Made by a program: the position numbers and the translations under genes. Under the pieces are notes generated by a model that saw only the letters and a list, made by a program, of their open reading frames with translations, was not told the DNA's origin and did not search any database. Below are positions 5,952-28,613 of a stretch of 64,000 nt of DNA, one piece after another. Location: positions 12,570 through 76,569 of the forward strand of contig CAZVGR010000014.1 of assembly GCA_964626845.1 (NCBI GenBank), written 5' to 3'. Position 1 is the stretch's first letter. Each line of letters starts with the position of its first letter. This DNA comes from an uncultured Anaerolinea sp. (lineage in GTDB: Bacteria > Chloroflexota > Anaerolineae > JAAEKA01).

Positions 5952-7091
5952 CTAGGCACGCCTGCGCGCGCGGCGCCCCTCTGTCTTGCGCTCGCCGCCG
6001 CCGATCTGATAACGGCCAAGCAGCTCGTACCAATCGGTCAGAGGCTGGTCTGGCGGGCCGGGTTGCCAGGCGCGAGCCGCCTCAACCAGGGCATCCAGAC
6101 TGGCGGCGGGCGTGTCCGGCGAGACGCCGCCGCCCACCGAGAGGATCATGCCGCCGCCGGGCGCGCCGCGATCCAGGCAGGCTGTGGCGAACTCGGCCAC
6201 CACCGCGGGCGGCTGGCGCACGGCCACGTGCAGCGGCGGCACGTTGCCCATCAACGCCACCCGATGCCCCATAGCCGCCTTGGCCTGCGCGATATCTACT
6301 TCGTGGGTCCAGTTGAAGACGTCGAAGCCGGCCTCGGCTAGCGCGGGGTAGAGATGCGGGCAGGGCATGTCATTGTGGTAAACCCGCACCAGCCCGTCGA
6401 AGTGGGCAAAAATGCGCTGCAGGCGGGGGGCCACGAACTCCTGGTAATGCTCCAGCGACACCATGCCCACGATGTCGTCCAGCAGCAGGATGCCCTCAGG
6501 GTTGCGCAACAGCTCTAGCTGGGCGTCGAGCCAATCGATCAACGTGGCAGTAATCTTGTCCAGGCAGCGGTGGATCACGTCGGGCTGCTCCACCAGCCCC
6601 ATCATCAAGCTGGTCAGGCCCATGATCCAGCCGGCCGTGACCATCGGCCCGCGCGCGGCCACCATGTGCATGCCCAGCCCCTCGGCCTGCAAACGCGCCT
6701 CGCTGCGTTCGGTCAGGCGCAGCGCCAGCGGCATCAGCCCATCCTCACGCACGTTGGGCAGCGGCGCGGCCGCCCAATGGGCCGCATCTTCGACCACCGG
6801 TTCGATAGAAGGGGGGCGATCGTGGTGCCAGTGCATTCGGCAGCCAAAGGCCGATGGCTCGGTGGCCATGCCGTACTCCACCCAGAAGCCGGGGATCCAG
6901 GCCACATCCGGCCAGCGCTCCAGCAGGCTGCGGTGGATGCCGAACCAGCGCTCAAAGTCCAAAAAATAGTCCAGCGTGTGGACGCCCGCATAGCCTGGCA
7001 GCCACGGGCTGTCGACAATGAAGGCCACCGGCGGCTGGTCGGTCTCTTCCAGCCGCGCCGCCTGCTTGAACCGCTGCCATGCTGTGGTCAT
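5952..7091 (-). CDS. Uroporphyrinogen decarboxylase (URO-D) family protein, paralog 1
   Basis: The ORF extends to 7238, but that part only translates the tandem repeat. Real start is MTTAWQ at 7091 with an AAGGA SD. URO-D-like C-terminal motifs. Confidence 0.7.
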   Translation of the reverse strand: MTTAWQRFKQAARLEETDQPPVAFIVDSPWLPGYAGVHTLDYFLDFERWFGIHRSLLERWPDVAWIPGFWVEYGMATEPSAFGCRMHWHHDRPPSIEPVVEDAAHWAAAPLPNVREDGLMPLALRLTERSEARLQAEGLGMHMVAARGPMVTAGWIMGLTSLMMGLVEQPDVIHRCLDKITATLIDWLDAQLELLRNPEGILLLDDIVGMVSLEHYQEFVAPRLQRIFAHFDGLVRVYHNDMPCPHLYPALAEAGFDVFNWTHEVDIAQAKAAMGHRVALMGNVPPLHVAVRQPPAVVAEFATACLDRGAPGGGMILSVGGGVSPDTPAASLDALVEAARAWQPGPPDQPLTDWYELLGRYQIGGGERKTEGRRARRRA

Positions 7092-7110
7092 GAGGAGTCC
7101 TTTCGGGGAG

Positions 7111-7216
7111 GGGGAGTTGCAAGTTGCAGGTGGCAAGTTGCAGGTGGCAAGTTGCAGGTGGCAAGTTGCAGGTTGCAGGTGGCAAGTTGCAAGTTGCAGG
7201 TGGCAAGTTGCAGGTA
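7111..7216. repeat. Tandem ~14-bp (two heptamer) repeat (GCAAGTTGCAGGTG)n
   Basis: About 7.5 direct units visible in sequence. Confidence 0.9.
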
Positions 7217-7242
7217 GATGCATAAACAGCACAGACAAACGC

Positions 7243-7382
7243 CCTTGTCTACTTGCCTACTTGCCTACTTGCCTACTTGCCTACTTGTCTACTTGTCTAC
7301 TTGCCTACTTGCCTACTTGTCTACTTGCCTACTTGCCTACTTGCCTACTTGCCTACTTGCCTACTTGCCTACTTGCCTACTG
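7243..7382. repeat. Tandem octamer repeat (CTACTTGC/CTACTTGT) x17; reverse complement of the GGCAAGTAG family
   Basis: Direct inspection. Partially complementary to the 7111-7216 array. Confidence 0.9.
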
Positions 7383-7417
7383 ATCTGCCCTCCCAGTGTA
7401 CGCTATGACAATGGCGA

Positions 7418-7446
7418 TTGACAAATCATCTATCGTCCATTATAAT
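7418..7446 (+). promoter_or_regulatory. Consensus sigma-70 promoter TTGACA-17bp-TATAAT upstream of the LacI-family gene
   Basis: 'ttgaca' 7418-7423 and 'tataat' 7441-7446 with exact 17-bp spacing. Confidence 0.55.
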
Positions 7447-7450
7447 CTTT

Positions 7451-7467
7451 GTTAGCGTTAACGAAAC
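7451..7467 (+). promoter_or_regulatory. Candidate operator (palindromic core CGTTAACG) overlapping the predicted transcription start
   Basis: 'gttagcgttaacgaaac' sits immediately downstream of the -10. CG-centred palindrome typical of LacI-family sites. Confidence 0.3.
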
Positions 7468-7499
7468 CCCTCAATGCTGTCGCAATGGAGCGACTCCTC

Positions 7500-8501
7500 A
7501 TGAGTGTTCGCACCACCATGGCTGATGTAGCCCGCGAGAGCGGCGTCTCCCTGATGACCGTCTCACGCGTAATCAACGGCAAGACCGACGTCAGCGAAGA
7601 TACCCGCCAGCGCGTGCTGGAGGTAATCGACCGGCTGAACTACCGGCCCAGCGGCATTGCGCGCAGCCTGGCCACCCGCCGGACGGGTACGCTGGGTCTG
7701 GTGGTGCCTGATATCTCCAATCCCTTTTTTGCCGATGTCGCCCGCGGCGTGGCCGCAGCAGCCTACCGCGAGGACTACACCGTCTTTCTTTGCAGCAGCG
7801 AAGAAGATGGGCAGCGCGAGCTGGACCTGCTCCATTCGTTAGAAGAGAAGCGCATCGATGGCCTGATCCTGTGCAGCTCGCGCCTGGCTGACGACCAGTT
7901 GGCGGCCACGCTGGCCCGCTTTCCCTCGGCGGTGCTGGTCAATCGCAGCTCACGCGATCCCCAGTTCGGAACCGTACTCGCTGACGATGAGGCCGGCGCC
8001 CGCATGTTGATGACGCATCTGCTGCGCAGCGGACGCCGCCAGATCGGTTTCCTGGCCGGACCCCCCATGTCCCACAGCGGTTTGGCCCGCATGCGCGGCT
8101 ACCAGACAGCCCTGACTGTGGCAGACCAGCGCTGTGAAGCTGCGCTGATGGAGCCATGTGCGCCGGTGGTGAAAGGCGGCGTCGAAGCAGCTCTGACGCT
8201 GTTGGCCGCACAGCCCCAGATCGATGCCTTGTTCTGCTACAACGACCTGGTGGCTGTCGGCGCGCTGCAAGCCTGCGCCCGGCTGGGACGGCGCGTGCCT
8301 GACGACGTGGCCGTGACCGGTTTCGATGACGTCCCCCTGGCCGCGCTGGTAACGCCGGCGCTGACCACCTGTCGCGTGCCCCGCCACGAGTTGGGCGTTC
8401 AGGCCACGCAGCGGCTGCTAACGCAGATCGATAGCCGGCCCAACAGATGCTGCGAGACGGTCGTGCCGGTTGCCATGGTTGTCCGGGCCAGCGCACCTTA
8501 G
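7500..8501 (+). CDS. LacI family transcriptional regulator
   Basis: N-terminal HTH (MADVARESGVSLMTVSRVING) and periplasmic-binding-like sugar domain. Start taken at ATG 7500 with a GGAG SD; ORF begins at 7449. Confidence 0.85.
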   Translation: MSVRTTMADVARESGVSLMTVSRVINGKTDVSEDTRQRVLEVIDRLNYRPSGIARSLATRRTGTLGLVVPDISNPFFADVARGVAAAAYREDYTVFLCSSEEDGQRELDLLHSLEEKRIDGLILCSSRLADDQLAATLARFPSAVLVNRSSRDPQFGTVLADDEAGARMLMTHLLRSGRRQIGFLAGPPMSHSGLARMRGYQTALTVADQRCEAALMEPCAPVVKGGVEAALTLLAAQPQIDALFCYNDLVAVGALQACARLGRRVPDDVAVTGFDDVPLAALVTPALTTCRVPRHELGVQATQRLLTQIDSRPNRCCETVVPVAMVVRASAP

Positions 8502-8643
8502 CGCAAGCGATCAAGGAGGAGAAGAAAGGAGGTGCTGTCGCCCATTTGTCTGCTGCCCATCGATCCACGGCGCAACGACGCCCGTGATGCGGACCCTATG
8601 CCGGTTCCCTGTTGCCCCAAAGATGTCGCTTAGGAGGTTCTCT

Positions 8644-10689
8644 ATGTTTCGCTCGCTGCTTGTCCTGCTTCTGTTAGCCTCGCTGTTGGTAGCTGCCTGT
8701 GGCTCCCCGGCCCCGGCCCAACCCGCTCCGACCGAACCTGCCCCCGCCCAGCCTGCCCCGGCTGAGCCTGCCCCCGCTCAACCTGCTCCGGCTGAGCCCG
8801 AGCCTACTCAACCAGCGCCCGCCGAGCCGGTGTCTGCGCCATCCAAATACAACGAAGCGCCCATGTTGGCGGCGCTGGTGGCCAGCGGCGACCTGCCGCC
8901 GGTGGACGAGCGCTTGCCCGAAGAGCCGCTGGTGCATCCAGTCGCCGAGATCGGCAAATACGGCGGCACGCTGCGCCGCGGCTTCACCGGGCCCGGCGAC
9001 CACAACAACTACACGCGCCTGTCCTACGACGCGCTGGTGCGCTTCTCGCCCGACGGCGCCGAGGTCATCCCCCATATCGCCAAGGGGTGGGAGTCCAACG
9101 AAGACTTCTCAGTGTGGCGGGTTTTCCTGCGCGAGGGCATGAAGTGGTCGGACGGCGCGCCCTTCACGGCTGACGACATCCTGTTCTGGTACGAGCACAT
9201 CCTGCTCAACACCGACTTGATGCCCAGCGTGCCTGGCTGGATGATGAACAGCGACGGCACAGTGGCCAGGGTCGAGAAGTTGGATGATTACACCGTCCAA
9301 TGGACTTACGCCCAACCCAACACGGCCTTCCTGCTGGACCTGGCTAACAAAGACGGCGCCGACAGGTCGATCACCAACCTGGCCTTCGTGCCGGCCCATT
9401 ACCTCCAGGACTTCCATCCTGCGTTCACCGAACAGGCTGCGCTGGATGCCGTGGTCAAGGAGCGAGGCTTCGACACCTGGACCGAGCTGTTTGCCGTGGA
9501 GGCCATGCCGCACCTGAGCGGCAAGCGGCCCAGCACGGCAGCTTGGGTGCCGGACAACTCGACGGTGGCCGACCCGGTCTTCCGGCTCAAGCGCAATCCC
9601 TATTACTTCGCCGTGGACCAGGCTGGCAACCAGTTGCCCTACCTGGACGATGTGCGCTACACCTTCTTCGCGGACGTTGCAGCCCTGAACCTGGCTGCAG
9701 TGGGCGGCGAGATCGACATGCAGGGCCGCCACATCCAGATGAGCAACTACCCGGTGCTGGTGGAAAACGCCGAGAAGGGCGGCTACAACGTATTGACCTG
9801 GCCTACGTTCGGCGGTTCGGATGCGGTGCTGATGTTCAACCAGACCTTCAACGCCGACCCTGGCATCGCCGCGCTGTTGCAGAGCAAGGACTTCCGCATC
9901 GCCATGTCGCACTCCATTGACCGCGAGTCGATCAAGGAGCTGGCCTTCCTGGGCATCGGCGAGGCGCGCCAGGGTGTGCCCGCGCCCAACCACCCCTACT
10001 ACCCCGGCGATGAGTACGCCTTCAAGTACACCGAGTACGACACCGCTAAGGCCAACGAAATCCTGGATGGGCTGGGCTTGACCGGCCGCGACGGTGAGGG
10101 TTTCCGCACCCTGCCCGACGGCGGCCGGCTGGATATCGAGATCCAGGTCATCCCCGCCTTTGCCAACTGGCCCGACATTGGCCAGATCATCGTGCAAAAC
10201 TGGGCCGACGTGGGCGTGCGCGCCCACATCGAGACCCGCGAGCGCGCCTTGGGCTTCCAGATGCGCAACACCAACGACCTGATGGTGGAGATCTGGAACG
10301 AGGACACCACCGCCTTCCCCTTCAGCGGCCAGCCTAAGATGGACCCGCGCAGCGATCCGGCCCTAACCCTGGCGCCGCTGGTGCGCCAGTGGTACCTGAG
10401 CGGCGGCGCTGAGGGTGTCGAGCCGACGCCAGAGCTGGCCCGGCTGGTGGAGATCATCGACGAGGCCAAGCTGTCCGGCCGCGAGCGCCAGATCGAGCTG
10501 GCCCAGGAGTTGTTCCGTCTCTGGGCTGACAACATCTGGGAGATCGGCACCGTCGGCCTGACCCCCATGGTGCAGGGTGTGGTCGTGGTCAACCAGGACC
10601 TGCGCAACGTGCCTGAGACGGCCGGCAACGACTGGCCGCTGCGCACGCCCGGCAACACCCGGCCGGAGACGTTCTTCTTCGACCGGTAG
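8644..10689 (+). CDS. ABC transporter substrate-binding lipoprotein, family 5 (Opp/Dpp-like)
   Basis: Start ATG 8644 after AGGAGG. Lipoprotein signal (LLVAAC). PAPAQPAPAEP tandem linker, then SBP_bac_5 domain. Confidence 0.85.
   Translation: MFRSLLVLLLLASLLVAACGSPAPAQPAPTEPAPAQPAPAEPAPAQPAPAEPEPTQPAPAEPVSAPSKYNEAPMLAALVASGDLPPVDERLPEEPLVHPVAEIGKYGGTLRRGFTGPGDHNNYTRLSYDALVRFSPDGAEVIPHIAKGWESNEDFSVWRVFLREGMKWSDGAPFTADDILFWYEHILLNTDLMPSVPGWMMNSDGTVARVEKLDDYTVQWTYAQPNTAFLLDLANKDGADRSITNLAFVPAHYLQDFHPAFTEQAALDAVVKERGFDTWTELFAVEAMPHLSGKRPSTAAWVPDNSTVADPVFRLKRNPYYFAVDQAGNQLPYLDDVRYTFFADVAALNLAAVGGEIDMQGRHIQMSNYPVLVENAEKGGYNVLTWPTFGGSDAVLMFNQTFNADPGIAALLQSKDFRIAMSHSIDRESIKELAFLGIGEARQGVPAPNHPYYPGDEYAFKYTEYDTAKANEILDGLGLTGRDGEGFRTLPDGGRLDIEIQVIPAFANWPDIGQIIVQNWADVGVRAHIETRERALGFQMRNTNDLMVEIWNEDTTAFPFSGQPKMDPRSDPALTLAPLVRQWYLSGGAEGVEPTPELARLVEIIDEAKLSGRERQIELAQELFRLWADNIWEIGTVGLTPMVQGVVVVNQDLRNVPETAGNDWPLRTPGNTRPETFFFDR
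8701..8830 (+). repeat. In-frame tandem DNA repeat encoding the Pro/Ala-rich linker (PAPAQPAPAEP)n of the binding protein
   Basis: ~33-bp period visible in sequence. Confidence 0.7.
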
Positions 10690-11044: not shown

Positions 11045-12031
11045 ATGATCCAACACATCATCAAACGCCTGCTGTTGCTGCCGGTGCTGCTCTTCATCTT
11101 CTCGGTCTTCGCCTTCGTCATCATCCAGGCCCCGCCGGGCGACTTTGTCACCAGCTACATCGCCGAGCTGGCTGCGTCTGGCTCGTCTATGGACCGGGTG
11201 CAGATCGACGCGCTGCGCGAGCAGTATGGCCTGGACCAGCCGGCCTACGTGCAATATAGCAAGTGGATCAGCCGCATCGTGCGCGGCGACCTGGGGGTGT
11301 CGCTGGACTGGCAGCGGCCCATCCGCCAGTTAATTGGCGAGCGGCTGGCGTTGACGGTGATCCTGGGCTTGATGACCTTCTTCTTTAGCTGGGTGCTGGC
11401 CGTGCCCATCGGCATCATCTCCGCGGTCAAGAAGTACTCACTGATCGACTACTTCCTGACCGTCTTCAACTATATCGGCGTCGCCACGCCGAGCTTCATG
11501 GTGGCGCTGATCGCCATGTGGCTGGCCTTCTCCTGGTTCGGCGTCAGCGTCACCGGCCTCTTCTCGCCAGAGTTCGTCGATGCTCCATGGAGCCTGGCGC
11601 GGGTGGCGGACATGCTCAAACACATGTGGCTACCCGTCCTGATCCTGACCCTGGGCGGCACGGCGCGCCTGGCCCGCATCATGCGCGCCAACCTGCTGGA
11701 CGAGCTGAACAAGCCCTACGTCGAAATGGCGCGCGCCAAGGGCATGTCGGAGTGGAAGCTGATCATGAAGTACCCGGTGCGGGTGGCCATCAACCCGCTG
11801 GTCAGCACCATCGGCTGGTTCCTGCCGCTGATCTTCTCCGGCAGCCTGGTGGTGGCCACGGTACTCAACCTGCCCACCATCGGCCCCATGTTCCTGCGCT
11901 CGCTGACCAACCAGGACATGTTCCTGGCCGGCGCCATCGTGCTGATCTACTGTATGCTGGCCATCATCGGCACGCTGATCTCCGACATCCTGCTGGCCTG
12001 GCTGGACCCGCGCATCCGGATGGAGGGCTGA
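11045..12031 (+). CDS. ABC transporter permease (DppB/OppB-like)
   Basis: 328 aa, multi-TM. ABC TM permease signature region. Confidence 0.85.
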   Translation: MIQHIIKRLLLLPVLLFIFSVFAFVIIQAPPGDFVTSYIAELAASGSSMDRVQIDALREQYGLDQPAYVQYSKWISRIVRGDLGVSLDWQRPIRQLIGERLALTVILGLMTFFFSWVLAVPIGIISAVKKYSLIDYFLTVFNYIGVATPSFMVALIAMWLAFSWFGVSVTGLFSPEFVDAPWSLARVADMLKHMWLPVLILTLGGTARLARIMRANLLDELNKPYVEMARAKGMSEWKLIMKYPVRVAINPLVSTIGWFLPLIFSGSLVVATVLNLPTIGPMFLRSLTNQDMFLAGAIVLIYCMLAIIGTLISDILLAWLDPRIRMEG

Positions 12032-12034: not shown

Positions 12035-13309
12035 ATGACTGAACACCCAGAGCCTCAGTCCTCCTTCGGCCGCAGGCTAGTCGACAATCTGCAAGAGGCA
12101 TCCTCGGTCTCCTACCAGCCCATGGTGCGGCAAGACGAGGAAGCCGCGCTGGCGCCGATGGGCGCAACGACCCAGGGCGCCGAGGCATTCTACGTAGCGC
12201 CCAACTGGAAACTGGTCTGGTGGCGCTTCAAAAAGCATCGCCTGGCCATGATCAGCGGCGTGGTCATGATCTTTATCACGATCATTGCGCTGGTCCCCGA
12301 CTTCTTCGCCACCCAGGACCCCAACGCCACCGCCGCCCTGGAGTCGTTCATCCCGGTACAGCGGGTGCATTTCTTCGATGAGCGCCGGCTCAGCCCCTTT
12401 GTCTTCGGCGCAGTCGGTCAGCGCAACCCCAAGTCGCTGCGGGTCGAATGGACGATCGACGAAGAGGTCAAGATACCGGTACAATTCTTCACGCGCGGCT
12501 ATCCCTACAAGATATTGGGCGTGATCTCCACCGACATCCATTTGATTGGCGTCGCGCCCACCGAAGAGCAGGCAGCAATCCGCCAGGCCGCGGCCAGCGG
12601 CGAGCGCATCAGCCAGGGCATCCATCTGCTGGGCACCGACCGCCTGGGACGCGACCAGTGGTCGCGGCTGATGTTCGGCACGCGCGTCTCGCTGTCCATC
12701 GGCCTGTTTGCGGTGGCTGTCAGCACGGTGCTGGGCATCTTTCTGGGCGGCATCTCCGGCTATTTCGGCGGCACGATCGATATGATCGTACAGCGCACCA
12801 TCGAGATCCTGCAGTCGCTGCCGGCCATTCCGATCTGGCTGGCCCTGACGGCCGCGCTGCCCCGCACCTGGTCAGTGGAGCAGACCTACTTCGCTATCAC
12901 TATCATCCTGGCGCTGCTGGGCTGGACGACGCTGGCGCGCGAGATTCGCGGGCGCTTTCTGACGCTACGCGAGGAAGACTTCATCGTGGCAGCCAAACTG
13001 TCGGGCTGCAGCCAGCAGCGCGTCATCTTCCGCCACATGGCGCCCACCATGTCCAGCCACATCATCGCCGCCGTCACCCTGGCCATCCCGGTTATGATCA
13101 TCAACGAGACCTTTCTCAGCTTCCTGGGCCTGGGCCTGCGGCCGCCGGCCATCAGTTGGGGCGTGCTGCTGCAAGAGGCGCAGAACCTGCAATCTATCGC
13201 CCTGGCTCCGTGGCTCTTGTTGCCCGGCCTGGTGGTCATCATCACCGTGCTGGCCCTCAACATCTTGGGCGATGGCCTGCGCGACGCGGCCGACCCGTAT
13301 ACGAGCTGA
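12035..13309 (+). CDS. ABC transporter permease (DppC/OppC-like) with N-terminal extension
   Basis: 424 aa. OppC_N-like extension then permease domain. Confidence 0.85.
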   Translation: MTEHPEPQSSFGRRLVDNLQEASSVSYQPMVRQDEEAALAPMGATTQGAEAFYVAPNWKLVWWRFKKHRLAMISGVVMIFITIIALVPDFFATQDPNATAALESFIPVQRVHFFDERRLSPFVFGAVGQRNPKSLRVEWTIDEEVKIPVQFFTRGYPYKILGVISTDIHLIGVAPTEEQAAIRQAAASGERISQGIHLLGTDRLGRDQWSRLMFGTRVSLSIGLFAVAVSTVLGIFLGGISGYFGGTIDMIVQRTIEILQSLPAIPIWLALTAALPRTWSVEQTYFAITIILALLGWTTLAREIRGRFLTLREEDFIVAAKLSGCSQQRVIFRHMAPTMSSHIIAAVTLAIPVMIINETFLSFLGLGLRPPAISWGVLLQEAQNLQSIALAPWLLLPGLVVIITVLALNILGDGLRDAADPYTS

Positions 13310-13377
13310 TGATTGGGTGACTGGGTGATTGACTGCCACCCTTGCCACCTGCCACCTGCATCCTGCAACCTGCAACC
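13310..13377. repeat. Heptamer tandem repeats (TGGGTGA, then TGCCACC/TGCAACC)
   Basis: Direct inspection. Occupies the junction between the permease and ATPase genes. Confidence 0.8.
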
Positions 13378-14412
13378 ATGAACCAACCTTTGCTTTCGGT
13401 GCGCAACCTAAAGACCTACTTCTTCCTGGACGAAGGCATCGTCAAGGCCGTAGATGGCCTGAGTTTCGACGTCTACCCCGGCCAGGTGGTGGGCATCGTC
13501 GGCGAGAGCGGCTGCGGCAAGAGCGTGGCCATCAAGTCGGTACTGCGCATCGTGCCGCCACCCGGCCGCACGGCCCAAGGGCAGATCCTCTACCGGCCAC
13601 AGAAGCAGGCCAGCTATGAAGGCGTCGGGCCTGAAGGCGCCATCGACCTGGTGCAGTTGAACGAGCGCGGCAAGCAGATGCGGGCGCTGCGCGGGGCCGA
13701 GATCGCCCTCATCCCGCAGGAGCCGATGGCCTCCTTCAGCCCGGTACACACCATCGGCAACCAGCTCATCGAGGCCATCCGCCTGCACCAGCCGGTCGGC
13801 AAGAAGGAGGCCTGGCAGATCGCCGTGGAACGCATGCGCGAGGTGGGGGTGCCCAGCCCCGAACAGCGCATGAACGCCTACTCCTGGGAGCTGAGCGGCG
13901 GGCTGCGCCAGCGGGCCATGATCGCCATGGCGCTGTCGTGCAACCCCAGCCTGCTGATCGCCGACGAGCCGACCACAGCCATCGACGTGACCACCCAGGC
14001 CCAGGTGCTGACCTTGCTCAAAGGCCTACAGGCCGAGCGCCAGATGGCTATCATCTTCATCACCCACGACCTGGGCGTGATCGCGCAAATGGCCGATTGG
14101 GTGGTAGTGATGTACCTGGGGCGGGTGATGGAGCAGGGGCCGGCCGACGACATCTTCCACAGCCCGCAGCATCCCTACACCCGGGCGCTGCTGGAGTCGA
14201 TTCCCACCGTCCATTCAGCCGCGCGCACCTTCCTGCCCACCATTGCGGGCTCGATCCCGCATCCCTTCAACCGGCCGCCTGGCTGCCCTTACTACCCGCG
14301 CTGCGCCGAGTTCATGCCCGGCGTCTGCGACCAGCGCACCCCGGCCGCGCAGCCCATCGGCGAACGCCAATTGGTGAGCTGCTTCCTGCACCACGATGTG
14401 GCGGATGAGTGA
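13378..14412 (+). CDS. ABC transporter ATP-binding protein (DppD/OppD-like)
   Basis: Walker A GESGCGKS, signature LSGGLRQR, Walker B LLIADEPTTAIDV. Start ATG 13378 (MNQPLL). Confidence 0.85.
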   Translation: MNQPLLSVRNLKTYFFLDEGIVKAVDGLSFDVYPGQVVGIVGESGCGKSVAIKSVLRIVPPPGRTAQGQILYRPQKQASYEGVGPEGAIDLVQLNERGKQMRALRGAEIALIPQEPMASFSPVHTIGNQLIEAIRLHQPVGKKEAWQIAVERMREVGVPSPEQRMNAYSWELSGGLRQRAMIAMALSCNPSLLIADEPTTAIDVTTQAQVLTLLKGLQAERQMAIIFITHDLGVIAQMADWVVVMYLGRVMEQGPADDIFHSPQHPYTRALLESIPTVHSAARTFLPTIAGSIPHPFNRPPGCPYYPRCAEFMPGVCDQRTPAAQPIGERQLVSCFLHHDVADE

Positions 14413-14425
14413 GGCGTGAAACGTG

Positions 14426-17259: not shown

Positions 17260-17345
17260 TCAATGGTCACTTGCCAATTGTCAATACTCAGAGCTTGCCA
17301 GCCATTGACAATTGACCATTGGACATTGAGATTTGGACATTAATC

Positions 17346-18530: not shown

Positions 18531-18640
18531 TGCGTAATGCGTAACCCGTAACCCGGAAAGGCTCGCCGACGAGATCTCTGGTTACGGATTACGAGTTACG
18601 TGTTACGAGTTACGAGTTACGAGTTACGTGTTACAAGCAA
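18529..18640. repeat. Inverted heptamer arrays (TAATGCG/TAACCCG ... GTTACGA/GTTACGT) flanking hairpin core CGTAACCCGG...GGTTACG
   Basis: Direct inspection. Confidence 0.85.
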
Positions 18641-18663
18641 ACACCCGCCATCGAAAGGCGCCT

Positions 18664-20077: not shown

Positions 20078-21250
20078 GTGAAACGTGATGAAGCGGCGCC
20101 GCTGGCGCTGGTCAACGGGCGCATCGTGCTGCCCGACCGGGTGGTGGATGGCCGGGCGCTGTTGGTTGCGGATAGCAAAATTGTGGCTGTGGTCGCGCTG
20201 GACGAGCTGGCCGCGGACACAGCCCGCCTGGACGTGGGCGGCCGGCTCGTCACACCCGGCCTGATCGACATCCACACCCACGGCGCGCTGGGCCACACCT
20301 TCAACGAGCCCACGGCTGAGGCATTCGCGACGATCACGGCCGAGAACCTGCGCCGCGGGGTCACGTCGCTGCTGGCCACCACCGCCACCGCGCCCATCGA
20401 CGACCTGGTGGCCTGCCTGGAGTTCGCCCGCGGCTGGATGGCTGCGCCCCAGGCCGGCAGCCAGGTGCTGGGCGTCCACCTGGAAGGCCCGTACTTCCAT
20501 CCCGCCAAGGCCGGCGCGCAGGACCCGGCTGCGCTGCGCACCCCCGACGACGGCTCGGTGGATCACCTGCTGGCCCACGCGGACGTGGTGCGCATGATGA
20601 GCTACGCGCCGGAGCTGCCGGGCGCGCTGGCGCTGACCGAGCGGCTGGCGAAGCTGGGCATCGTCCCGGCCGCCGGCCACAGCAATGCCCGCGACACGGA
20701 CTTGGAGGCCGCCATGCAAGCCGGTCTGCGCCACATCATCCACGTCTGGAGCGCGCAATCGACCACCGTGTACGAGGGCGCATGGCGCAAACCGGGCCTG
20801 CTGGAGGCGTCGTTGGCCTTCGACGGCCTGACGGTGGAGATGATCGCCGACCACAAGCACCTGCCGCGCACCCTGATGCGGCTGGCCTACAAGGCCATTG
20901 GCCCCGACCGGCTGTGCATCGTCTCCGACGCCACCAGCGGCGCGGGCCTGCCTGAGGGCAGCCGCTTCCGCATGGGCGCGCTGGAGTACGTGGTCGAGGA
21001 CGGCGTGGGCATGATGCTGGACCGCTCCTCCTTTGCCGGCAGCAGCACGCTGCTGAACCAGATGCTGCCCGTGCTCGTCGACGTGGTGGGCATCCCGCTG
21101 GCCGAGGCCGTGCGCATAGCCACCCTCAATCCGGCGCGCGTCATCGGCGCGGATAATCGCAAGGGCAGCCTGGAGCCGGGCAAGGATGCCGACATCGCCA
21201 TCTTCGACGCTGACTTCACCGCCTGGCACGTGCTGGTCGGCGGACGGTAA
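20078..21250 (+). CDS. nagA: N-acetylglucosamine-6-phosphate deacetylase (amidohydrolase)
   Basis: GTG start. Metal-binding HTHG, NagA-like EGPYF and AAGHSNA motifs. Confidence 0.8.
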   Translation: MKRDEAAPLALVNGRIVLPDRVVDGRALLVADSKIVAVVALDELAADTARLDVGGRLVTPGLIDIHTHGALGHTFNEPTAEAFATITAENLRRGVTSLLATTATAPIDDLVACLEFARGWMAAPQAGSQVLGVHLEGPYFHPAKAGAQDPAALRTPDDGSVDHLLAHADVVRMMSYAPELPGALALTERLAKLGIVPAAGHSNARDTDLEAAMQAGLRHIIHVWSAQSTTVYEGAWRKPGLLEASLAFDGLTVEMIADHKHLPRTLMRLAYKAIGPDRLCIVSDATSGAGLPEGSRFRMGALEYVVEDGVGMMLDRSSFAGSSTLLNQMLPVLVDVVGIPLAEAVRIATLNPARVIGADNRKGSLEPGKDADIAIFDADFTAWHVLVGGR

Positions 21251-21310
21251 TCGGTGATCAGTAACCGGTCACCGGTCACGGATTACCGATCACCAAATCT
21301 GGAGCCAACC

Positions 21311-22087
21311 ATGTCATCCCCCATCCACCAAATCACCATCGACCAACTTCCCGTGCGCGTCTATGCCAGCAACGAGGCCATGGGCCAGGCTGCGGCAGTG
21401 GAGGCTGCGGCGGTAATCCAGCGGGCCATCGCCCAGCGCGGCGCAGCCAACGTCATCCTGGCCACGGGCAACTCGCAGCTCACCTTCTTGCGCAGCCTAC
21501 GCGAAAACCAGGATATCGAATGGCGGCATGTGCGCGTTTTCCACATGGACGAGTACGTGGGCCTCGACCCGCAGCACCCTGCCAGCTTTCCGCTCTTCCT
21601 GCGCCGCCATTTCCTGGACTACGTGGACGTGGGCGCGTTCTTCCCCGTGGCCGCGCCGGTCGAGGACACCGAGGCCGCCTGCCGGGCCTACGAGTCGTTG
21701 TTGCGCCATCACCCGGCCGACCTGTGCGCCTGCGGCATCGGCGAGAACGGCCACCTGGCCTTCAACGATCCGCCCTACGCCGACTTCGACGATCCCGTTT
21801 GGGTCAAGGTGGTGCAGTTGGACGAGCGATCGCGGCGCCAGCAGGTAGGCGAGGCCCATTTTACCACCCTGGACGAGGTACCCACCCACGCCGTCACCCT
21901 GACCATCCCCGCGCTGCTGGCCGCCGGGACCGTGCTGTGTATCGTCCCAGAAGCCCGCAAAGCCGAGGCCGTCCAGGCCAGCCTGCGCGGCCCGATTACC
22001 GAGGACTGCCCCGCGTCGATCCTGCGCACGCAGGCCCACGTCCGGCTGTATCTGGATCCGGAGTCGGGTAAATTGGTAAATTGGTAG
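21311..22087 (+). CDS. nagB: Glucosamine-6-phosphate deaminase (NagB/6-phosphogluconolactonase family)
   Basis: Start ATG 21311 (MSSPIHQ). Motifs ILATGNSQ and FHMDEYVGL. Confidence 0.8.
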   Translation: MSSPIHQITIDQLPVRVYASNEAMGQAAAVEAAAVIQRAIAQRGAANVILATGNSQLTFLRSLRENQDIEWRHVRVFHMDEYVGLDPQHPASFPLFLRRHFLDYVDVGAFFPVAAPVEDTEAACRAYESLLRHHPADLCACGIGENGHLAFNDPPYADFDDPVWVKVVQLDERSRRQQVGEAHFTTLDEVPTHAVTLTIPALLAAGTVLCIVPEARKAEAVQASLRGPITEDCPASILRTQAHVRLYLDPESGKLVNW

Positions 22088-22178: not shown

Positions 22179-23327
22179 ATGAACCCACGAATCCGCCTCC
22201 TCACCGCCCTTTCCCACCGCGAGCCGGACCGCGTGCCCTTCGACCTGGGCAGCACGCAGGTGACCGGCATCCACGAGGTCGCCTACCGCGCCCTGCGCGC
22301 CGCGCTGGGGCTGCCGGCCGTGGAGCCGGTGCTTTGCGACGCGATCCAGCGCCTGGCCCTGCCTGACGAGGACCTGCTGCAAGCGCTGGGCGTGGACACG
22401 CGCGGCCTCTACCCGCTCAACAGCCACAACCTGCCCTTCGACGAAGCGGACGGCGGCGACTACTGGCTGTATCAAGACGAGTGGGGCATCACGCACCGTC
22501 GGCCCAAGGACGAGGGCCTCTACTACAGCATCTGGCAGGTCCCGCTGCCCCGCGACAACGTGAGCGTGCAGGAGATCGAGCGCTATCCCTGGCCCGACAT
22601 GGGCGCGGTCTGGCGCTTTGCCGGGCTGCGGGAGCAGGCTGAGCGCTGCCGCGCGGCCGGCTATGCCGTGGTGCTCAAGGATGGCTTTGCTGGCATCTTC
22701 GAGTTCGCCCAGCGTATGGTGGGCATGGAGAACCTGCTGGTGATGATGGCGCTACGGCCGGAGGCGGCCGAGGCGCTGTTCGACCAACTGCTGGCGCTGA
22801 AACTGGCCTACTGGCAGACCGCGCTGGCTGAGCTTGGCGACCTGGTGGACGTTGTTACCTACGCCGACGACTACGGCAGCCAGGTGTCGCAGATCATCTC
22901 GCCGCGCATGTTCCGCCGCCTGCTCAAGCCGCGCGTGCAGCAGGTCTTGGCGTTGCAAGCCAGGCTGGCGCCGCACGCTTACCGCTTTTTCCACTCCGAC
23001 GGCAACGTGCGGTCGCTCCTCCCCGACTTCATCGAGATCGGCGTGCAGATCCTCAACCCGATCCACATCCGCGCCACCGGCATGGATCCGGCCGCGCTGA
23101 AGCGTGACTTCGGCCGCGACCTGGCCTTCTGGGGCGGAGGCGTGGACACCCAGGGCGTGCTGCCCACCGGCACGCCGCAGCAGGTCAAGGAAGACGTGCA
23201 GCGCAACGTCGCGGCTTTGGCATCCGGCGGCGGCTACGTCTTCAACACCATCCACAACATCCAGGCCGACGTGCCGGCGGAGAATGTGTTGGCGATGGTG
23301 GAGGCATTGCGAGAGGTATCCCCATGA
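22179..23327 (+). CDS. Uroporphyrinogen decarboxylase (URO-D) family protein, paralog 2
   Basis: 382 aa. URO-D family N- and C-terminal motifs (DRVPFDLGS; FHSDGN; FNTIHNIQADVPAENV). Confidence 0.75.
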   Translation: MNPRIRLLTALSHREPDRVPFDLGSTQVTGIHEVAYRALRAALGLPAVEPVLCDAIQRLALPDEDLLQALGVDTRGLYPLNSHNLPFDEADGGDYWLYQDEWGITHRRPKDEGLYYSIWQVPLPRDNVSVQEIERYPWPDMGAVWRFAGLREQAERCRAAGYAVVLKDGFAGIFEFAQRMVGMENLLVMMALRPEAAEALFDQLLALKLAYWQTALAELGDLVDVVTYADDYGSQVSQIISPRMFRRLLKPRVQQVLALQARLAPHAYRFFHSDGNVRSLLPDFIEIGVQILNPIHIRATGMDPAALKRDFGRDLAFWGGGVDTQGVLPTGTPQQVKEDVQRNVAALASGGGYVFNTIHNIQADVPAENVLAMVEALREVSP

Positions 23328-24325
23328 AAGTTCTCTTTATCGGCGGCACCGGCGTGATCAGCTCGGCCTGCACAGAGTTGGCCGTGCAGCAGCACATCGA
23401 CCTGTATCTGCTCAACCGCGGGCAGAGCACGGCGCGGCCGGCGCCCATCGGCGCAACGGTGCTGCACGGCGACATCCGCGACCCGGCCAGCGTCGAAGCC
23501 GCTCTGCGCGGCCACAGCTTCGACGTGGTGGTGGACTGGATCGCCTTCACGCCCCAGCATGTGCAGACTGACATCGACCTGTTCCGGGGCCGCGTGGGCC
23601 AGGTCATCTTCATCAGCTCGGCCTCGGCCTATCAGACCCCGCCGGCCAGCCTGCCCGTCACCGAGTCGACGCTGCTGGACAACCCTTTCTGGGAGTACTC
23701 GCGCCAGAAGATCGCCTGCGAGGAGCTGCTGGTGCGGGCTTACCGCGACGAAAAGTTTCCCATGACCATCGTGCGCCCCTCGCACACCTACGACGCCACC
23801 AAGATACCGCTGTTGGGCGGCTACACCAGCCTCAAGCGCATGAAAGAGGGCCGGCCGGTGCTGGTCTACGGCGACGGCACATCCTTGTGGACGCTGACCC
23901 ATACGCGCGACTTCGCCACCGGCTTCGTCCCGCTGCTGGGCAACGCCCGCGCCATCGGCGAGGCGGTGCATATCACCTCCGACGAATGGCTGACCTGGAA
24001 CCAGATCTACCAGACCATGGCCGCGGCGCTGGGCGTGGAGGCCAGGCTGGTCCACGTGCCCAGCGAGCTGATCAACGCTTACGACCCGCACCACGGCGAG
24101 GGCCTGCTGGGCGACAAAAGCCACAGCATGATTTTCGACAACAGCAAGATCAAGCGTCTGGCCCCCGGCTTTGCCTGCACCACCCCCTTCGCCTGGGGCG
24201 CCCGCGAGATCGTCGCCTGGCACGAGGCCGACCCGGCCCGGCAGGGGATCGACCCGTACGTGGAGACGTTGATCGAGCGGGTGCTGGCGGCGTATGAGAA
24301 GTGCTGGCCGGGCAGTAATGCGTAA
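23324..24325 (+). CDS. NAD-dependent epimerase/dehydratase (SDR family)
   Basis: ATGA overlap with the upstream stop. Rossmann motif LFIGGTGVISS. Confidence 0.8.
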   Translation: MKVLFIGGTGVISSACTELAVQQHIDLYLLNRGQSTARPAPIGATVLHGDIRDPASVEAALRGHSFDVVVDWIAFTPQHVQTDIDLFRGRVGQVIFISSASAYQTPPASLPVTESTLLDNPFWEYSRQKIACEELLVRAYRDEKFPMTIVRPSHTYDATKIPLLGGYTSLKRMKEGRPVLVYGDGTSLWTLTHTRDFATGFVPLLGNARAIGEAVHITSDEWLTWNQIYQTMAAALGVEARLVHVPSELINAYDPHHGEGLLGDKSHSMIFDNSKIKRLAPGFACTTPFAWGAREIVAWHEADPARQGIDPYVETLIERVLAAYEKCWPGSNA

Positions 24326-24412
24326 CTCGTAACTCGTAACCCGGAATTCGGAGACTCGTGCAGGCCGACTCCGGGTTACGCATTACGAGTTACGGGTTAC
24401 GGGCGCATCCAA
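24307..24412. repeat. Heptamer arrays (TAACTCG/TAACCCG ... TTACGAG/TTACGGG) around hairpin CGTAACCCGGAA...TCCGGGTTACG
   Basis: Same family as 18529-18640 and 63195-63268. Confidence 0.85.
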
Positions 24413-24417
24413 CTCCC

Positions 24418-25476
24418 ATGAACCACCCATTTCTCCCGTTCGAGCTCGTCTTCAACCCCAACTGGTGGTTCCAGACGGCCGGCATCAGCTTCGATGAAAG
24501 TTTCTACCTGGACCCTGCGACGCGCATCCGCAACGACGTGACTATGCGTCGCGTGCTGTGGCAGCGCTACGGCGACCTGGGGCTGGGCGAGGCCGACCCG
24601 CAGCCGCGGCCGGTGATCGGCTCGCTGCACGTGGCCGGCGGCTTCGTCATCCCGGCCCTGCTGGGCGCCGAGATTCGCTTTGCGCCCGACGCCGCGCCCC
24701 AGCCGCTGCCGCGCCGGCTGACGGCTGAACAGATCGACGCGCTGGAGAAGCCTGACTTGCGCTCGCTGTGGCCGATGAACGCGCTGCTGGCCCAGATGGA
24801 CACGCTGGAGGCCGAGTACGGCTATGTGGTCGGCGACCTGAACACCGACGGCCTGCTCAACGCAGCCTACCACTTCTACGGCGAGGACTTGTTCGCCGAC
24901 TTCCACCTGGCCCCGCAGCGGGTGACGCGCCTGTTGTCGCTGATCGGCGAGTTGATCGTGGACGTGGCGCTGGCCGTGCGCAGCCGCACCGGTTCCTGTT
25001 CGATCAGCGTCAACCGCATGGTGGAGCGGGTGGACCCGGCCATTTTCTTCCACGCCAACTGCTCGGTGCAGATGATCTCGCCCAAGAGCTATCGCGCGCT
25101 GCACCTGCCCGTGGAGCAGGCCATGGCCCGCCGCATCCGGCCCTTCGGCATCCACCACTGCGGCAGCAATCTGCATAAAGTTGCAGCCGCCTACGCCGAG
25201 TTGCAGCCGGCGATGGTCGACGTGGGGTGGGGCTCGGACGTGGCCGCGGTGGCGGCGACGCTGCCCGCCACGTTTCTCAACCTGCGCCTCAGTCCGGTGC
25301 GCATGTTGCACAACACGCCGCAGGAGGTCGCTGCCGACGCCGAATATCTGTTGCAGGCCGCCGGCGACCTGACGCGCGCTGGCCTGTGCTGCATCAACAT
25401 GGACTACGGCACGCCCGACGACAACATCTGGGCCGTGGCCGAGGTCGTGGAGCGCTATCGACGCTACGGCGGTTGA
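24418..25476 (+). CDS. URO-D-like family protein (divergent), paralog 3
   Basis: Start ATG 24418 (MNHPFLPF). Weak URO-D-like C-terminal motifs (IHHCGSN; GTPDDNIWAV). Assignment tentative. Confidence 0.5.
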   Translation: MNHPFLPFELVFNPNWWFQTAGISFDESFYLDPATRIRNDVTMRRVLWQRYGDLGLGEADPQPRPVIGSLHVAGGFVIPALLGAEIRFAPDAAPQPLPRRLTAEQIDALEKPDLRSLWPMNALLAQMDTLEAEYGYVVGDLNTDGLLNAAYHFYGEDLFADFHLAPQRVTRLLSLIGELIVDVALAVRSRTGSCSISVNRMVERVDPAIFFHANCSVQMISPKSYRALHLPVEQAMARRIRPFGIHHCGSNLHKVAAAYAELQPAMVDVGWGSDVAAVAATLPATFLNLRLSPVRMLHNTPQEVAADAEYLLQAAGDLTRAGLCCINMDYGTPDDNIWAVAEVVERYRRYGG

Positions 25477-25609
25477 CAGAGACCCGGTGAATAGAATTCA
25501 CCGTCTGACAACACCAAGGCCCCTCAGGGCCTGCCTCCCCAGCGGCTGAGGCCGCTTCGTCCTGTTCAGCCAGGGATTTCCAATCCCTGACGTTTGTACC
25601 GAGCAAACC

Positions 25610-27022
<1,413 letters not shown>

Positions 27023-27039
27023 AGCTTTCCCTCACCCCA

Positions 27040-27125
27040 GCCCTCTCCCAGAGGGAGAGGGAGTCCGGAATCCGGAATCCGGAGTCCGGTCCCCTCTCCC
27101 TCTGGGAGAGGGTTAGGGTGAGGGC
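27040..27125. terminator. Long near-perfect palindrome (~33-bp arms) with a (TCCGGAA)n heptamer loop; candidate terminator after uxaC
   Basis: ccctcaccccagccctctcccagagggagaggg ... ccctctccctctgggagagggttagggtgaggg. Confidence 0.5.
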
Positions 27126-27134
27126 GAACCCACC

Positions 27135-28613
27135 GTGTATCAGAAAGCACCACCCATGACTATCGATAGCTTGACACATCTACCCATTTACCCCGCCTCG
27201 GTCATCCAGGCCGGCGAGACGACTTACTGCCTGCTGCGCGACCAGGGGCAGGGCAAGCATCTGGCCATCGCCGGCACGGCTGCCGGCTTCGAGGGGGAGC
27301 GCGCAGGCGACCTGCTGCTTTGTCCGTTGACGCCAGCCAACGCGGCTGTTCTGCGGGCAGTGTTGCCTCGGCTGCAGCCGCAGCCGCTGGGACTGCAAAC
27401 ATCGGCCGGCTTTGGCGATCGGCTGGGGCTGGCAACGCCCGGCCATGTGCGGGCCATGTGCAAGGCGGCCGGCGTGGCGCCGATCTTTGCGCAGCAGTCG
27501 ATTCGCGAGAACGCCCGCACCGGCCGCACGCCGCAGCAGGTACTGGACGACGCCATGTGGGGCGTGTTTCAGGAGGGCTGGCAGGCTGGCTACGGCGCCG
27601 ACGCCGATCACCTCAAGACCCCGGCCGACGCCGACAGCACCGCCGCGGCCGGCTACACCTTCTTCACCATCGACCCCGGCGAGCACGTGGACGACTCGGC
27701 CCACAGCGCTGCGCCGGCTGAGTTGACGGCCAAAGTAGCCGCGCTGCCCTGGGCCGCGCTGGAGATGCAGCCGGACGATCTGCCCCACCGTTACCTGGGC
27801 CAGGCCTTCGAGCTGGCGCGCGGCCGGCTAATTTTTGACGAACAAAGCCTGCTGCGGGCAGCCGCCAAGTATGGCCGCGCCGTGGCCCACGTGGCCCGCA
27901 TGTACCGCCACCTGGAAGCTGTCATGACCGACCGGGCCTGGGAGCTAGAGGTGTCGGTGGACGAGACCGAGACGCCCACGTCGCATCTGGAGCATCTCTA
28001 CATTGCCCTGGAGTTGAAACGGCTGGGCGTGCGCTGGGTCAGCCTGGCCCCGCGCTACGTGGGTCGTTTCGAGAAGGGCGTAGACTACATTGGCGATCTG
28101 GACGCGCTGCAGGCCGACCTGGCCGGGCACGCGGCTATTGCCGGCGCGTTCGGCCCTTACAAGCTCAGCCTGCACAGCGGCTCCGACAAGTTCAGCGTCT
28201 ACCCGCTGATCGTCGAGGCGACCGGCGGCCTGGTGCATCTCAAGACGGCCGGCACCAGCTACCTGGAGGCGCTGCGGGCCATTGCCCAGGTGGAGCCGGC
28301 CCTGTTGCGCGCAGTCTATGCGCTGGCCTTCGAGCGCTACGGCGAGGACCGCAAGACCTACCACGTGTCGGCCCAGCCTGGCCGCGCGCCGCAGCCTGAC
28401 AGCCTGACCGACGCTGCTCTGCCGGCCGTGCTGGACCAGTTCGACGCGCGCGAGATGCTGCACGTCACCTTCGGCTCGGCGCTGGCCCGCTACGGCGACG
28501 CCATCAAGGCCACCCTGCGCGCCCACGAGGAGGCCCACTATGCCGCCCTGGAGGCGCACTTCGACCGGCATCTGGCGGCGTTTGCAACCCCGGGACGGCA
28601 GCGCATGCCATGA
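27135..28613 (+). CDS. uxaE: Tagaturonate/fructuronate epimerase
   Basis: Motif blocks FGDRLGLATPGHVRA, FAQQSIRENARTGRT, VSVDETETPTS, SLHSGSDKFSVYP and KTAGTSYLEA match the characterised Thermotoga UxaE family, as recalled. Confidence 0.7.
   Translation: MYQKAPPMTIDSLTHLPIYPASVIQAGETTYCLLRDQGQGKHLAIAGTAAGFEGERAGDLLLCPLTPANAAVLRAVLPRLQPQPLGLQTSAGFGDRLGLATPGHVRAMCKAAGVAPIFAQQSIRENARTGRTPQQVLDDAMWGVFQEGWQAGYGADADHLKTPADADSTAAAGYTFFTIDPGEHVDDSAHSAAPAELTAKVAALPWAALEMQPDDLPHRYLGQAFELARGRLIFDEQSLLRAAAKYGRAVAHVARMYRHLEAVMTDRAWELEVSVDETETPTSHLEHLYIALELKRLGVRWVSLAPRYVGRFEKGVDYIGDLDALQADLAGHAAIAGAFGPYKLSLHSGSDKFSVYPLIVEATGGLVHLKTAGTSYLEALRAIAQVEPALLRAVYALAFERYGEDRKTYHVSAQPGRAPQPDSLTDAALPAVLDQFDAREMLHVTFGSALARYGDAIKATLRAHEEAHYAALEAHFDRHLAAFATPGRQRMP

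Follow-up and report, generated by a model that had tools for sequence, protein, structure and literature searches.

What are three members of the uroporphyrinogen decarboxylase (URO-D) family doing in a sugar-catabolic operon? The question is raised by a 64,000-nucleotide stretch of DNA from an uncultured Anaerolinea sp. (contig CAZVGR010000014.1; referred to in full as the window), which has a G+C content of ~65% and encodes proteins sharing 90–100% identity with proteins of Anaerolineae and Caldilineae metagenome-assembled genomes (MAGs). A preliminary description of this DNA had recognised a catabolic island with three mutually divergent URO-D-family genes embedded in it, and had guessed that their products might be novel decarboxylases or methyltransferase-like enzymes. 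We find that these genes, which we call UROD1, UROD2 and UROD3, belong to a conserved operon found in dozens of species, and we tentatively favour a role for their products as methyltransferases acting on methylated sugars. The three genes are located in the window as follows:

5952–7091, minus strand: UROD1, a URO-D-family protein of 379 amino acids (aa) (PF01208 E = 4.3e-38)
22179–23327, plus strand: UROD2, a URO-D-family protein of 382 aa (PF01208 E = 2.4e-22)
24418–25476, plus strand: UROD3, a 352-aa member of a small and distinct URO-D subfamily (PF01208 E = 5.7e-9)

All three proteins are above the PF01208 (URO-D) gathering score of 23.9 bits, and their divergence from one another was confirmed by BLASTP, in which UROD1 and UROD2 share 25% identity over 203 aa, UROD2 and UROD3 share 24% over 175 aa, and no significant match was found between UROD1 and UROD3. 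The Pfam matches were obtained with the open reading frames (ORFs) at 5952–7238 (minus strand), 22179–23327 (plus) and 24358–25476 (plus); the match in the first of these begins at residue 56 and we therefore place the start of UROD1 at 7091, and UROD3 is taken to start at 24418 because its homologues are 352 aa long, including one database protein which is 100% identical. Both starts agree with the coordinates of the preliminary description. By curated cut-offs, none of the three paralogs would be classified as either HemE or MtaA. Against the hemE equivalog model TIGR01464 (cut-off 302.95 bits) UROD1 scored 55.0 bits and UROD2 18.2 bits, with no match for UROD3, and against the MtaA/CmuA models TIGR01463 and NF004889 (cut-offs 235–244 bits) the scores were 75.6 and 87.5 bits for UROD1, 47.2 and 41.9 bits for UROD2, and none and 20.3 bits for UROD3. 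All of these scores are below the cut-offs, and for every one of the paralogs the MtaA/CmuA-type models give a better score than hemE does (NCBIfam).

Alignments around the active-site motifs separate the paralogs further. The best Protein Data Bank (PDB) sequence matches of UROD1 are HemE structures (E = 2e-16), and when it is aligned with three of these, EPSAFG is found opposite IPDAMG so that the catalytic aspartate (human D86, in the motif PDA) is replaced by serine (PSA); the RQAGR-type arginine-rich substrate motif of HemE is also missing from the UROD1 N-terminus. UROD2 and UROD3 could not be aligned with HemE in the region of the PDA and N-terminal motifs. In the comparison with MtaA (PDB 4AY7), the H-I-C-G and G-C-G zinc-ligand motifs correspond to H239-N-D241 and G-G-G in UROD1, in which Y238, H239, N240, D241, P243 and C244 are at least 97% conserved across 36 orthologues. 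UROD2 has H-S-(D) and H359 at the zinc-ligand sites, and its conserved residues are H272, H359, N360 and Q362. UROD3 has an MtaA-like H246-x-C248 motif (H246-H-C248) followed by C324/C325, and within its family G[IV]HHCG is found in 82 of 82 members and CC[IV]NMD in 75 of the 82. The H-H-C-G and C-C residues of UROD3 are aligned opposite the H-I-C-G and G-C-G ligands of MtaA, in a profile alignment which is weak (hhalign E = 0.012).

No match to UROD3 was found in the PDB by sequence or profile search, and its relationship to MtaA was seen instead in the predicted structure. The AlphaFold2 (AF2) model of UROD3 (pLDDT 90) has MtaA 4AY8 and 4AY7 as the best Foldseek matches (E = 3e-14, TM ~0.68–0.70), followed by HemE and then by MetE, with the MetE matches also significant; the model is thus a URO-D-type (βα)8 barrel nearest to MtaA. 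The UROD2 model was poor (pLDDT 62) and was not taken into the fold search.

A scan with an alignment of UROD3, using one genome per species, identified relatives in 248 species, and for the best 80 loci all ORFs were clustered and the gene order tabulated; presence counts are given for the 29 of these loci with full ±10 kb flanks. Nearly all of the 80 come from MAGs of the class Anaerolineae (Anaerolineales, Caldilineales, Promineifilaceae, Ardenticatenaceae, Thermoflexales and Bellilinea), plus one labelled Planctomycetota and one labelled Armatimonadota, and the habitats of the related MAGs are sludge, sediment and groundwater. The UROD3 subfamily is small, with 593 matches among 1.84 billion cluster representatives. 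The genes accompanying UROD3 in the full loci are those for UROD2 (23 loci), the N-acetylglucosamine (GlcNAc)-6-phosphate deacetylase NagA (22), the deaminase/isomerase NagB (21), the hexuronate enzymes UxaE (19) and UxaC (18), UROD1 (14), a GFO/IDH/MocA oxidoreductase (12), a sulfatase (11), a cupin (11), an N-acylglucosamine 2-epimerase (AGE; 7) and a short-chain dehydrogenase/reductase (SDR)-type epimerase (7). From these counts we recognise a core made up of the URO-D genes, NagA/NagB, UxaC/UxaE and the importer, with the sulfatase, AGE, GFO oxidoreductase/cupin and SDR genes being optional.

The co-location of URO-D and sugar genes cannot be put down to chance, as dozens of species share this arrangement, and the conserved neighbourhood shows the paralogs to be integral parts of the operon. 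UROD2 is the most widespread of the three with >6300 database relatives, and NagA and NagB are found directly upstream of it in almost all relatives of the cluster. UROD1 orthologues are present in 34 of the 80 loci, where in most relatives the gene lies inside the operon in the order UROD3–UROD1–UxaC, and a second URO-D gene stands beside UROD3 in 24 of the 29 full loci. We note that in one otherwise syntenic cluster the UROD1 position between UROD3 and UxaC is occupied by an M20 peptidase/deacylase gene (L090, 13474–14679), and that an M20 gene is also found alongside a distant UROD3-like/NagB-like pair (L094).

A stand-alone corrinoid protein is encoded inside the operon in nine of the 80 orthologous loci (~70% identity). 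It consists of B12-binding_2 and B12-binding domains, scores 192–203 bits with models of methyltransferase-cognate corrinoid proteins, and has the DxHxxG motif in all nine cases (as DLHDIG or DMHDIG). The corrinoid gene sits between URO-D genes and not at the edge of the cluster, and is found directly beside UROD3 (L013, L023, L078 and L080), UROD1 (L026) or UROD4, a fourth type of URO-D protein (L073 and L080). The gene for the corrinoid activase RACo is located just downstream of the cluster in L041.

Further links to corrinoid chemistry were found among protein fusions. In P0382/P0511, from a Desulfobacteraceae MAG, a UROD3-like domain (35% identity) is joined to Pterin_bind, B12-binding_2 and B12-binding domains, and the P0382 gene is directly followed by one for RACo; the arrangement of its domains resembles that of MetH, the substrate position being taken by the URO-D barrel. 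A second fusion, P0369, joins UROD3-like and UROD4-like domains and has two URO-D barrels in a single chain, and UROD4 and UROD3 both keep the H-x-C-G motif.

Relatives of UROD3 outside the main cluster adjoin sugar genes, including those for a fucose isomerase and kinase, a GH2 protein and an MFS sugar transporter, and another distant relative adjoins a NagB-like gene. In a distant lineage (L095) a UROD2-like/UROD3-like pair (30% identity) is accompanied by a cupin, two LarA genes, an aldolase and a kinase, with no corrinoid protein within 7 kb. As the pair recurs there with sugar genes, we take the association of UROD2 with UROD3 to be ancient and tied to sugar or sugar-acid catabolism. In the context of P0370 (38% identical to UROD3; L087–L089), the UROD3-like gene is found directly after Dpp-type permeases, with an enolase-superfamily (MR_MLE) gene and an ornithine-cyclodeaminase/mu-crystallin gene upstream. 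This context resembles gene clusters for the catabolism of betaine or imino acids, and a demethylase with a substrate other than a sugar would be in keeping with it.

The in-operon corrinoid proteins, the B12 fusion with its adjoining RACo gene and the structural match to MtaA all favour the methyltransferase half of the original guess, and the decarboxylase half has gained no support. Our preferred reading, which we hold tentatively, is that the URO-D paralogs may be MtaA/MtvB-like methyltransferases that demethylate methylated uronate or hexosamine sugars, each paralog perhaps catalysing a half-reaction and the corrinoid protein being supplied, where the operon has none, from elsewhere in the genome. 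That UROD2 and UROD3, with UROD1 or UROD4, make up an unrecognised class of oxygen-independent carbohydrate demethylases, with the methyl group handed on to folate by way of a corrinoid protein, is a more specific proposal which we regard as possible rather than probable.

Two known systems offer comparisons for the preferred reading. MtaA/MtbA/CmuA (PDB 4AY7) share the URO-D TIM-barrel with the paralogs and include the structure that the UROD3 model matches best, the H-x-C-G motif is kept in UROD3 and UROD4 and the downstream cysteine in UROD3, and a cognate-type corrinoid protein is encoded beside orthologues in nine species. However, the paralogs score only 20–88 bits against cut-offs of 235–244 bits, UROD1 and UROD2 have no cysteine ligands, the context is one of sugar catabolism and not of C1 metabolism, and most loci are without a corrinoid protein. 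A further difference from MtaA is that coenzyme M use is not expected in the host, a non-methanogenic Chloroflexota bacterium. The three-component O-demethylases of anaerobes, consisting of a methyltransferase of the MtvB/MtoB type (MT1), a corrinoid protein, a second methyltransferase (MT2) and a RACo-type activase, likewise combine several URO-D-superfamily paralogs with a corrinoid protein, and the distant UROD3 relative described above is fused to pterin-binding MT2 and corrinoid domains and has an activase adjoining. They differ in that their known substrates are aryl methyl ethers, whereas the neighbours in the island are hexuronate and hexosamine enzymes, and in that genes for a corrinoid protein, MT2 and activase are all missing from the window. 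A relationship to the MtaA/CmuA family is on record for MT1 enzymes of the MtvB type, which cleave ethers (PMC8630106).

The well-known corrinoid methyltransferase systems have as substrates methanol, methylamines, betaines, methyl-thiols, chloromethane and aryl methyl ethers. The literature searched, in full text, contains no report of sugar (alkyl) methyl ethers as substrates of corrinoid demethylation and no paper that ties URO-D proteins to uronate, hexosamine or sugar clusters; the mlp cluster is a different one and concerns methyl-sulfur or methyl-selenium compounds (PMC10418091).

A number of points weigh against methyl transfer, and the main weakness is the absence of a corrinoid protein from the window, the 64 kb of which also contain no pterin-binding methyltransferase, RACo or cobalamin riboswitch (Rfam found no cobalamin riboswitch or other family in the window or in eight related loci). 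Similarly, a corrinoid protein is missing from the ±10 kb around 71 of the 80 orthologous loci, and RACo was found by tblastn in only one of the 80, which is weak support. UROD1 and UROD2 do not have the His/Cys/Cys ligands of MtaA, the fusion proteins are only 35–40% identical to UROD3 and the reaction type may not transfer, no gene identifies a methylated substrate, and Pfam finds no glycoside hydrolase in the operon to explain cleavage of an imported oligosaccharide. Alkyl methyl ethers are, in addition, much poorer methyl donors than aryl ethers. The corrinoid gene missing from the operon is not decisive, because substrate-specific methyltransferases, corrinoid protein and MT2/activase may be encoded in separate clusters (PMC8604678) and systems with a shared corrinoid protein function in aerobes (PMC12478193).

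Many of the same points can be read in favour of a different chemistry, in which the paralogs would be cofactor-free or simple metal-dependent TIM-barrel enzymes catalysing decarboxylation, isomerisation, β-elimination or oligosaccharide cleavage, with the corrinoid protein as a separate and optional module. We consider this somewhat unlikely. It would account for the corrinoid protein missing from the window and from most loci, for UROD1 and UROD2 having no MtaA cysteine ligands, for the distant UROD2-like/UROD3-like pair with its cupin and sugar-acid genes and no corrinoid protein nearby, and for the operon without a glycoside hydrolase, and the founding member of the URO-D family is itself a cofactor-free decarboxylase. 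The HemE catalytic aspartate is however replaced in UROD1, hemE is a more distant profile than the MtaA-type ones for all three paralogs, pterin-binding and B12 domains are joined to a UROD3-like domain in a fusion that has RACo adjoining, and the corrinoid gene, where it occurs, has URO-D genes on either side; URO-D-fold sugar enzymes would also be without precedent.

What the methyltransferases of our preferred reading might act on has to be sought in the rest of the island, the features of which are listed below together with the control region:

7119–7215 and 7244–7381: two tandem-repeat arrays, with a 14-nucleotide unit GCAAGTTGCAGGTG (x6.9) and an 8-nucleotide unit CTTGCCTA (x17), respectively (Tandem Repeats Finder)
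7418–7446, plus strand: operon promoter TTGACA-17-TATAAT, a 12/12 match to the consensus (promoter scan)
7450–7463, plus strand: LacI-type near-palindromic candidate operator TGTTAGCGTTAACG (pattern search)
7500–8501, plus strand: LacI-family repressor (Pfam LacI HTH and Peripla_BP_1/3), with an in-frame ATG at 7500
8623–10689, plus strand: family-5 (Dpp/Opp-type) solute-binding lipoprotein with a Pro/Ala-rich linker (SBP_bac_5 E = 2.5e-54)
11045–12031 and 12035–13309, plus strand: two Dpp/Opp-type permeases (BPD_transp_1, OppC_N)
13342–14412 and 14423–15547, plus strand: two Dpp/Opp-type ATPases (ABC_tran and oligo_HPY)
15544–16551, plus strand: GFO/IDH/MocA oxidoreductase (Pfam), accessory module
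16831–17259, plus strand: Cupin_2 protein (Pfam), accessory module
17319–18530, plus strand: AGE (PF07221 E = 4e-40), accessory module
18628–20067, plus strand: cytoplasmic type-I sulfatase (Sulfatase PF00884 and SGSH_C), accessory module
20078–21250, plus strand: NagA (TIGR00221, 263.2 bits with a cut-off of 225.65)
21254–22087, plus strand: NagB-family deaminase/isomerase (nagB model, 123 bits, under the cut-off of 236.9)
23324–24325, plus strand: SDR-type NAD-dependent epimerase/dehydratase (PF01370 E = 1.3e-22), accessory
25610–27022, plus strand: UxaC glucuronate/galacturonate isomerase (NF002794, 526.9 bits with a cut-off of 387)
27135–28613, plus strand: UxaE tagaturonate–fructuronate epimerase (PF16257, 473.9 bits)

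Every gene in the region 7418–28613 is on the plus strand and the gaps are short, with the order being promoter, operator, lacI, importer, GFO oxidoreductase, cupin, AGE, sulfatase, NagA, NagB, UROD2, SDR, UROD3, UxaC and UxaE. This agrees with the LacI-associated catabolic island of the preliminary description and supports a single-strand operon for an imported acidic, amino-sugar-related carbohydrate, and the list of island genes in that description was matched throughout by Pfam and NCBIfam with the exception of a HAD phosphatase. Pfam assigned none of the 18 genes to HAD, a HAD-like protein taken from a related locus had no tblastn match in the window, and the gaps in the island to which no gene is assigned are too small for such a protein. 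UROD1 is divergent from the operon and is separated from its promoter by the two tandem-repeat arrays, which could be spacers, a source of variable promoter distance, or assembly-prone repeats. The candidate operator lies downstream of the -10 box and ahead of the lacI ATG at 7500, a position typical of LacI autoregulation, and this would suggest autoregulation of the whole operon; it should be noted that it is one site, which alone is not significant against shuffling.

The binding protein has a lipobox (LVAAC) after an N-terminus beginning MSLRRF, and its best PDB relatives are Thermotoga maritima 'OppA' (5IPW, E = 2.7e-107) and SPH1118 (7VER, E = 5.8e-90). SPH1118 is the only close PDB relative with a known ligand, and binds pectin/oligogalacturonide. 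In view of the SPH1118-like binding protein we considered pectin methyl-ester as the methyl donor, and regard this as less likely because simple esterases suffice for esters.

Among the accessory genes, the GFO oxidoreductase and cupin are found as one fused protein of 485 aa in a related locus (L005, 1161–2615), and in another a DmpA/S58 peptidase domain is fused to a cupin of the same kind (L052, 6744–8687). The two fusions suggest that the cupin may act on the product of its partner enzyme, and the oxidoreductase and cupin are candidates for oxidative glycoside processing. The cupin was also considered as KdgF, of unsaturated-uronate metabolism, and this was rejected given that there is no lyase, KduI or KduD, and given the cupin–GFO oxidoreductase fusion. 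The sulfatase has the CSPSR formylglycine motif and no signal peptide, and its PDB relatives include GlcNAc-6-sulfatase. In one relative, a radical-SAM/Fer4_12 gene resembling those of anaerobic sulfatase-maturating enzymes is found within the cluster (L007, 4311–5342).

Hexuronate breakdown by the isomerase pathway is indicated by UxaC, which is above its equivalog cut-off, and by the family match of UxaE. In many relatives (including L010, L011, L018, L029 and L038) UxaE is followed by an SDR above the D-mannonate oxidoreductase cut-off (358 vs 281 bits), a LarA-family protein that matches the model for nickel-dependent hexonate epimerase best, a gluconokinase (193 vs 114 bits) and 6-phosphogluconate dehydrogenase. 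These make up the Thermotoga-type route from hexuronate through fructuronate, mannonate and gluconate to 6-phosphogluconate, and so into the pentose-phosphate pathway. As described, the Thermotoga pathway does not include URO-D genes, NagA/NagB or a binding protein of family 5. The window shares UxaC and UxaE with this pathway and differs in having no mannonate oxidoreductase, LarA-type epimerase, gluconokinase or 6-phosphogluconate dehydrogenase, UxaE being followed here by genes for a CDGSH protein, an amidohydrolase and an aldo-keto reductase. The LarA-type GntE step of the route has been demonstrated biochemically (PMC7583248).

The proposed methyltransferases can be placed in a scheme for the whole operon. 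In this LacI-repressed operon, the Dpp-type ABC system would import a decorated acidic carbohydrate, in the form of fragments containing uronate and N-acetylhexosamine, and the decorations would be taken off in the cytoplasm. UROD3, with its zinc-type H-x-C...C site, is proposed as the substrate- or corrinoid-facing methyltransferase and would work with its constant partner UROD2 and with either UROD1 or UROD4. This trio would remove the methyl group from an O-methylated sugar such as a methylated hexuronate or hexosamine, and the methyl would pass to a corrinoid protein (where available) and on to tetrahydrofolate, or else directly to an acceptor. The plain sugar left could then be used by NagA/NagB in the case of hexosamine or by UxaC/UxaE in the case of hexuronate, which in the relatives would continue through mannonate oxidoreductase, the LarA-type hexonate epimerase, gluconokinase and 6-phosphogluconate dehydrogenase.

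The preliminary description had gone further and taken the substrate to be a sulfated amino-sugar/uronate oligosaccharide of the glycosaminoglycan type. An operon for an acidic, amino-sugar-related carbohydrate is well in keeping with our results, and degradation of a chondroitin-, heparan- or hyaluronan-like oligosaccharide is in our view unlikely. NagA, NagB, AGE and UxaC are all present and the formylglycine motif, SGSH_C domain and GlcNAc-6-sulfatase relatives of the sulfatase are those of a carbohydrate sulfatase, yet the gene is found in only 11 of the 29 full loci, and it and AGE are each lacking in most orthologous clusters. Pfam assigns all 18 island genes, none of them to a polysaccharide lyase, GH88, KduI or KduD, and the families conserved across the 80 related loci do not include these either; it is because of this, and because the sulfatase and AGE are optional, that we find the glycosaminoglycan idea weak. 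In addition, the binding-protein relative with a known ligand binds pectin, rhamnosidase genes adjoin the cluster in two relatives, and the related MAGs come from sludge, sediment and groundwater. UxaE serves the galacturonate branch, and galacturonate is not a glycosaminoglycan sugar. A better description of the substrate would be a decorated acidic heteropolysaccharide fragment with methyl, sulfate or N-acetyl groups.

Methyl transfer might also proceed with no corrinoid protein at all, if UROD3 and UROD2, UROD1 or UROD4 formed a MetE-like double barrel that moved the methyl group directly from the sugar to a zinc-activated thiol (e.g. homocysteine) or folate. MetE belongs to the same fold clan, with MetE structures being significant Foldseek matches of the UROD3 model, and has a zinc His/Cys/Cys(Glu) site and a two-barrel layout which is mirrored by the P0369 UROD3–UROD4 fusion and by the constant pairing of URO-D genes. 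The second URO-D gene beside UROD3 in most full loci and the frequent lack of a corrinoid protein could be explained in this way too. We nevertheless think a MetE-like arrangement improbable: corrinoid proteins are encoded in the operon in nine species, a fusion with B12 domains exists, SN2 attack on an alkyl methyl ether is chemically demanding without a Co(I) supernucleophile, and the operon has no acceptor-related gene. There is also no detectable sequence similarity to MetE, the barrels of the island are encoded by separate genes, and the context is not methionine synthesis.

That one or more of the paralogs is a genuine HemE for heme or chlorophyll synthesis, as the Pfam family name and fold and the PDB matches of UROD1 might suggest, was rejected on the equivalog scores given above, by which even UROD1 falls ~250 bits short of the cut-off, and the replaced catalytic aspartate, and is further contradicted by the missing N-terminal substrate-binding motif and by the embedding of these genes in a sugar operon in dozens of species, so that the paralogs do not group with canonical HemE as the preliminary description had allowed.

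Whatever the chemistry, three strongly conserved enzymes are found at the core of a widespread sugar-acid operon. Methylated sugars such as 4-O-methyl-glucuronate are common in plant, algal and microbial polysaccharides, and to our knowledge the only described sugar demethylases need oxygen. The functional analogue of the proposed role is the cytochrome P450 sugar O-demethylase of marine Bacteroidota, which acts on 6-O-methyl-galactose, is oxygen-dependent, releases formaldehyde and belongs to an unrelated protein family. We found no description of how anoxic communities handle sugar methyl groups in the literature searched. If the methyltransferase reading were true, the paralogs would represent a new substrate class for corrinoid-type methyltransferases and an oxygen-independent route for methylated sugars in anaerobic and facultative Chloroflexota and others. 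Several annotations of the type 'uroporphyrinogen decarboxylase family', so far uncharacterised, would also acquire a function (>6,300 proteins match UROD2 alone), and carbohydrate breakdown would be linked to C1/folate metabolism in the Anaerolineae, a class abundant in sludge, sediments and digesters.

Elsewhere in the window, the G+C content falls to 0.57–0.61 between 48000 and 54000, where a C5 cytosine DNA methylase gene (52590–53843, minus strand) lies next to an unassigned 350-aa ORF, and this is probably a restriction-modification or mobile island. Two large proteins are encoded on the minus strand, one of 1920 aa with ten lamin-tail domains (54411–60173) and one of 1430 aa which is alpha-2-macroglobulin-like and has an N-terminal zf-HC2 (anti-sigma type) motif (42087–46379). 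Upstream of the island there is a glycerate kinase gene (2427–3815, plus strand; DUF4147 and MOFRL), which is not conserved beside the cluster in relatives.

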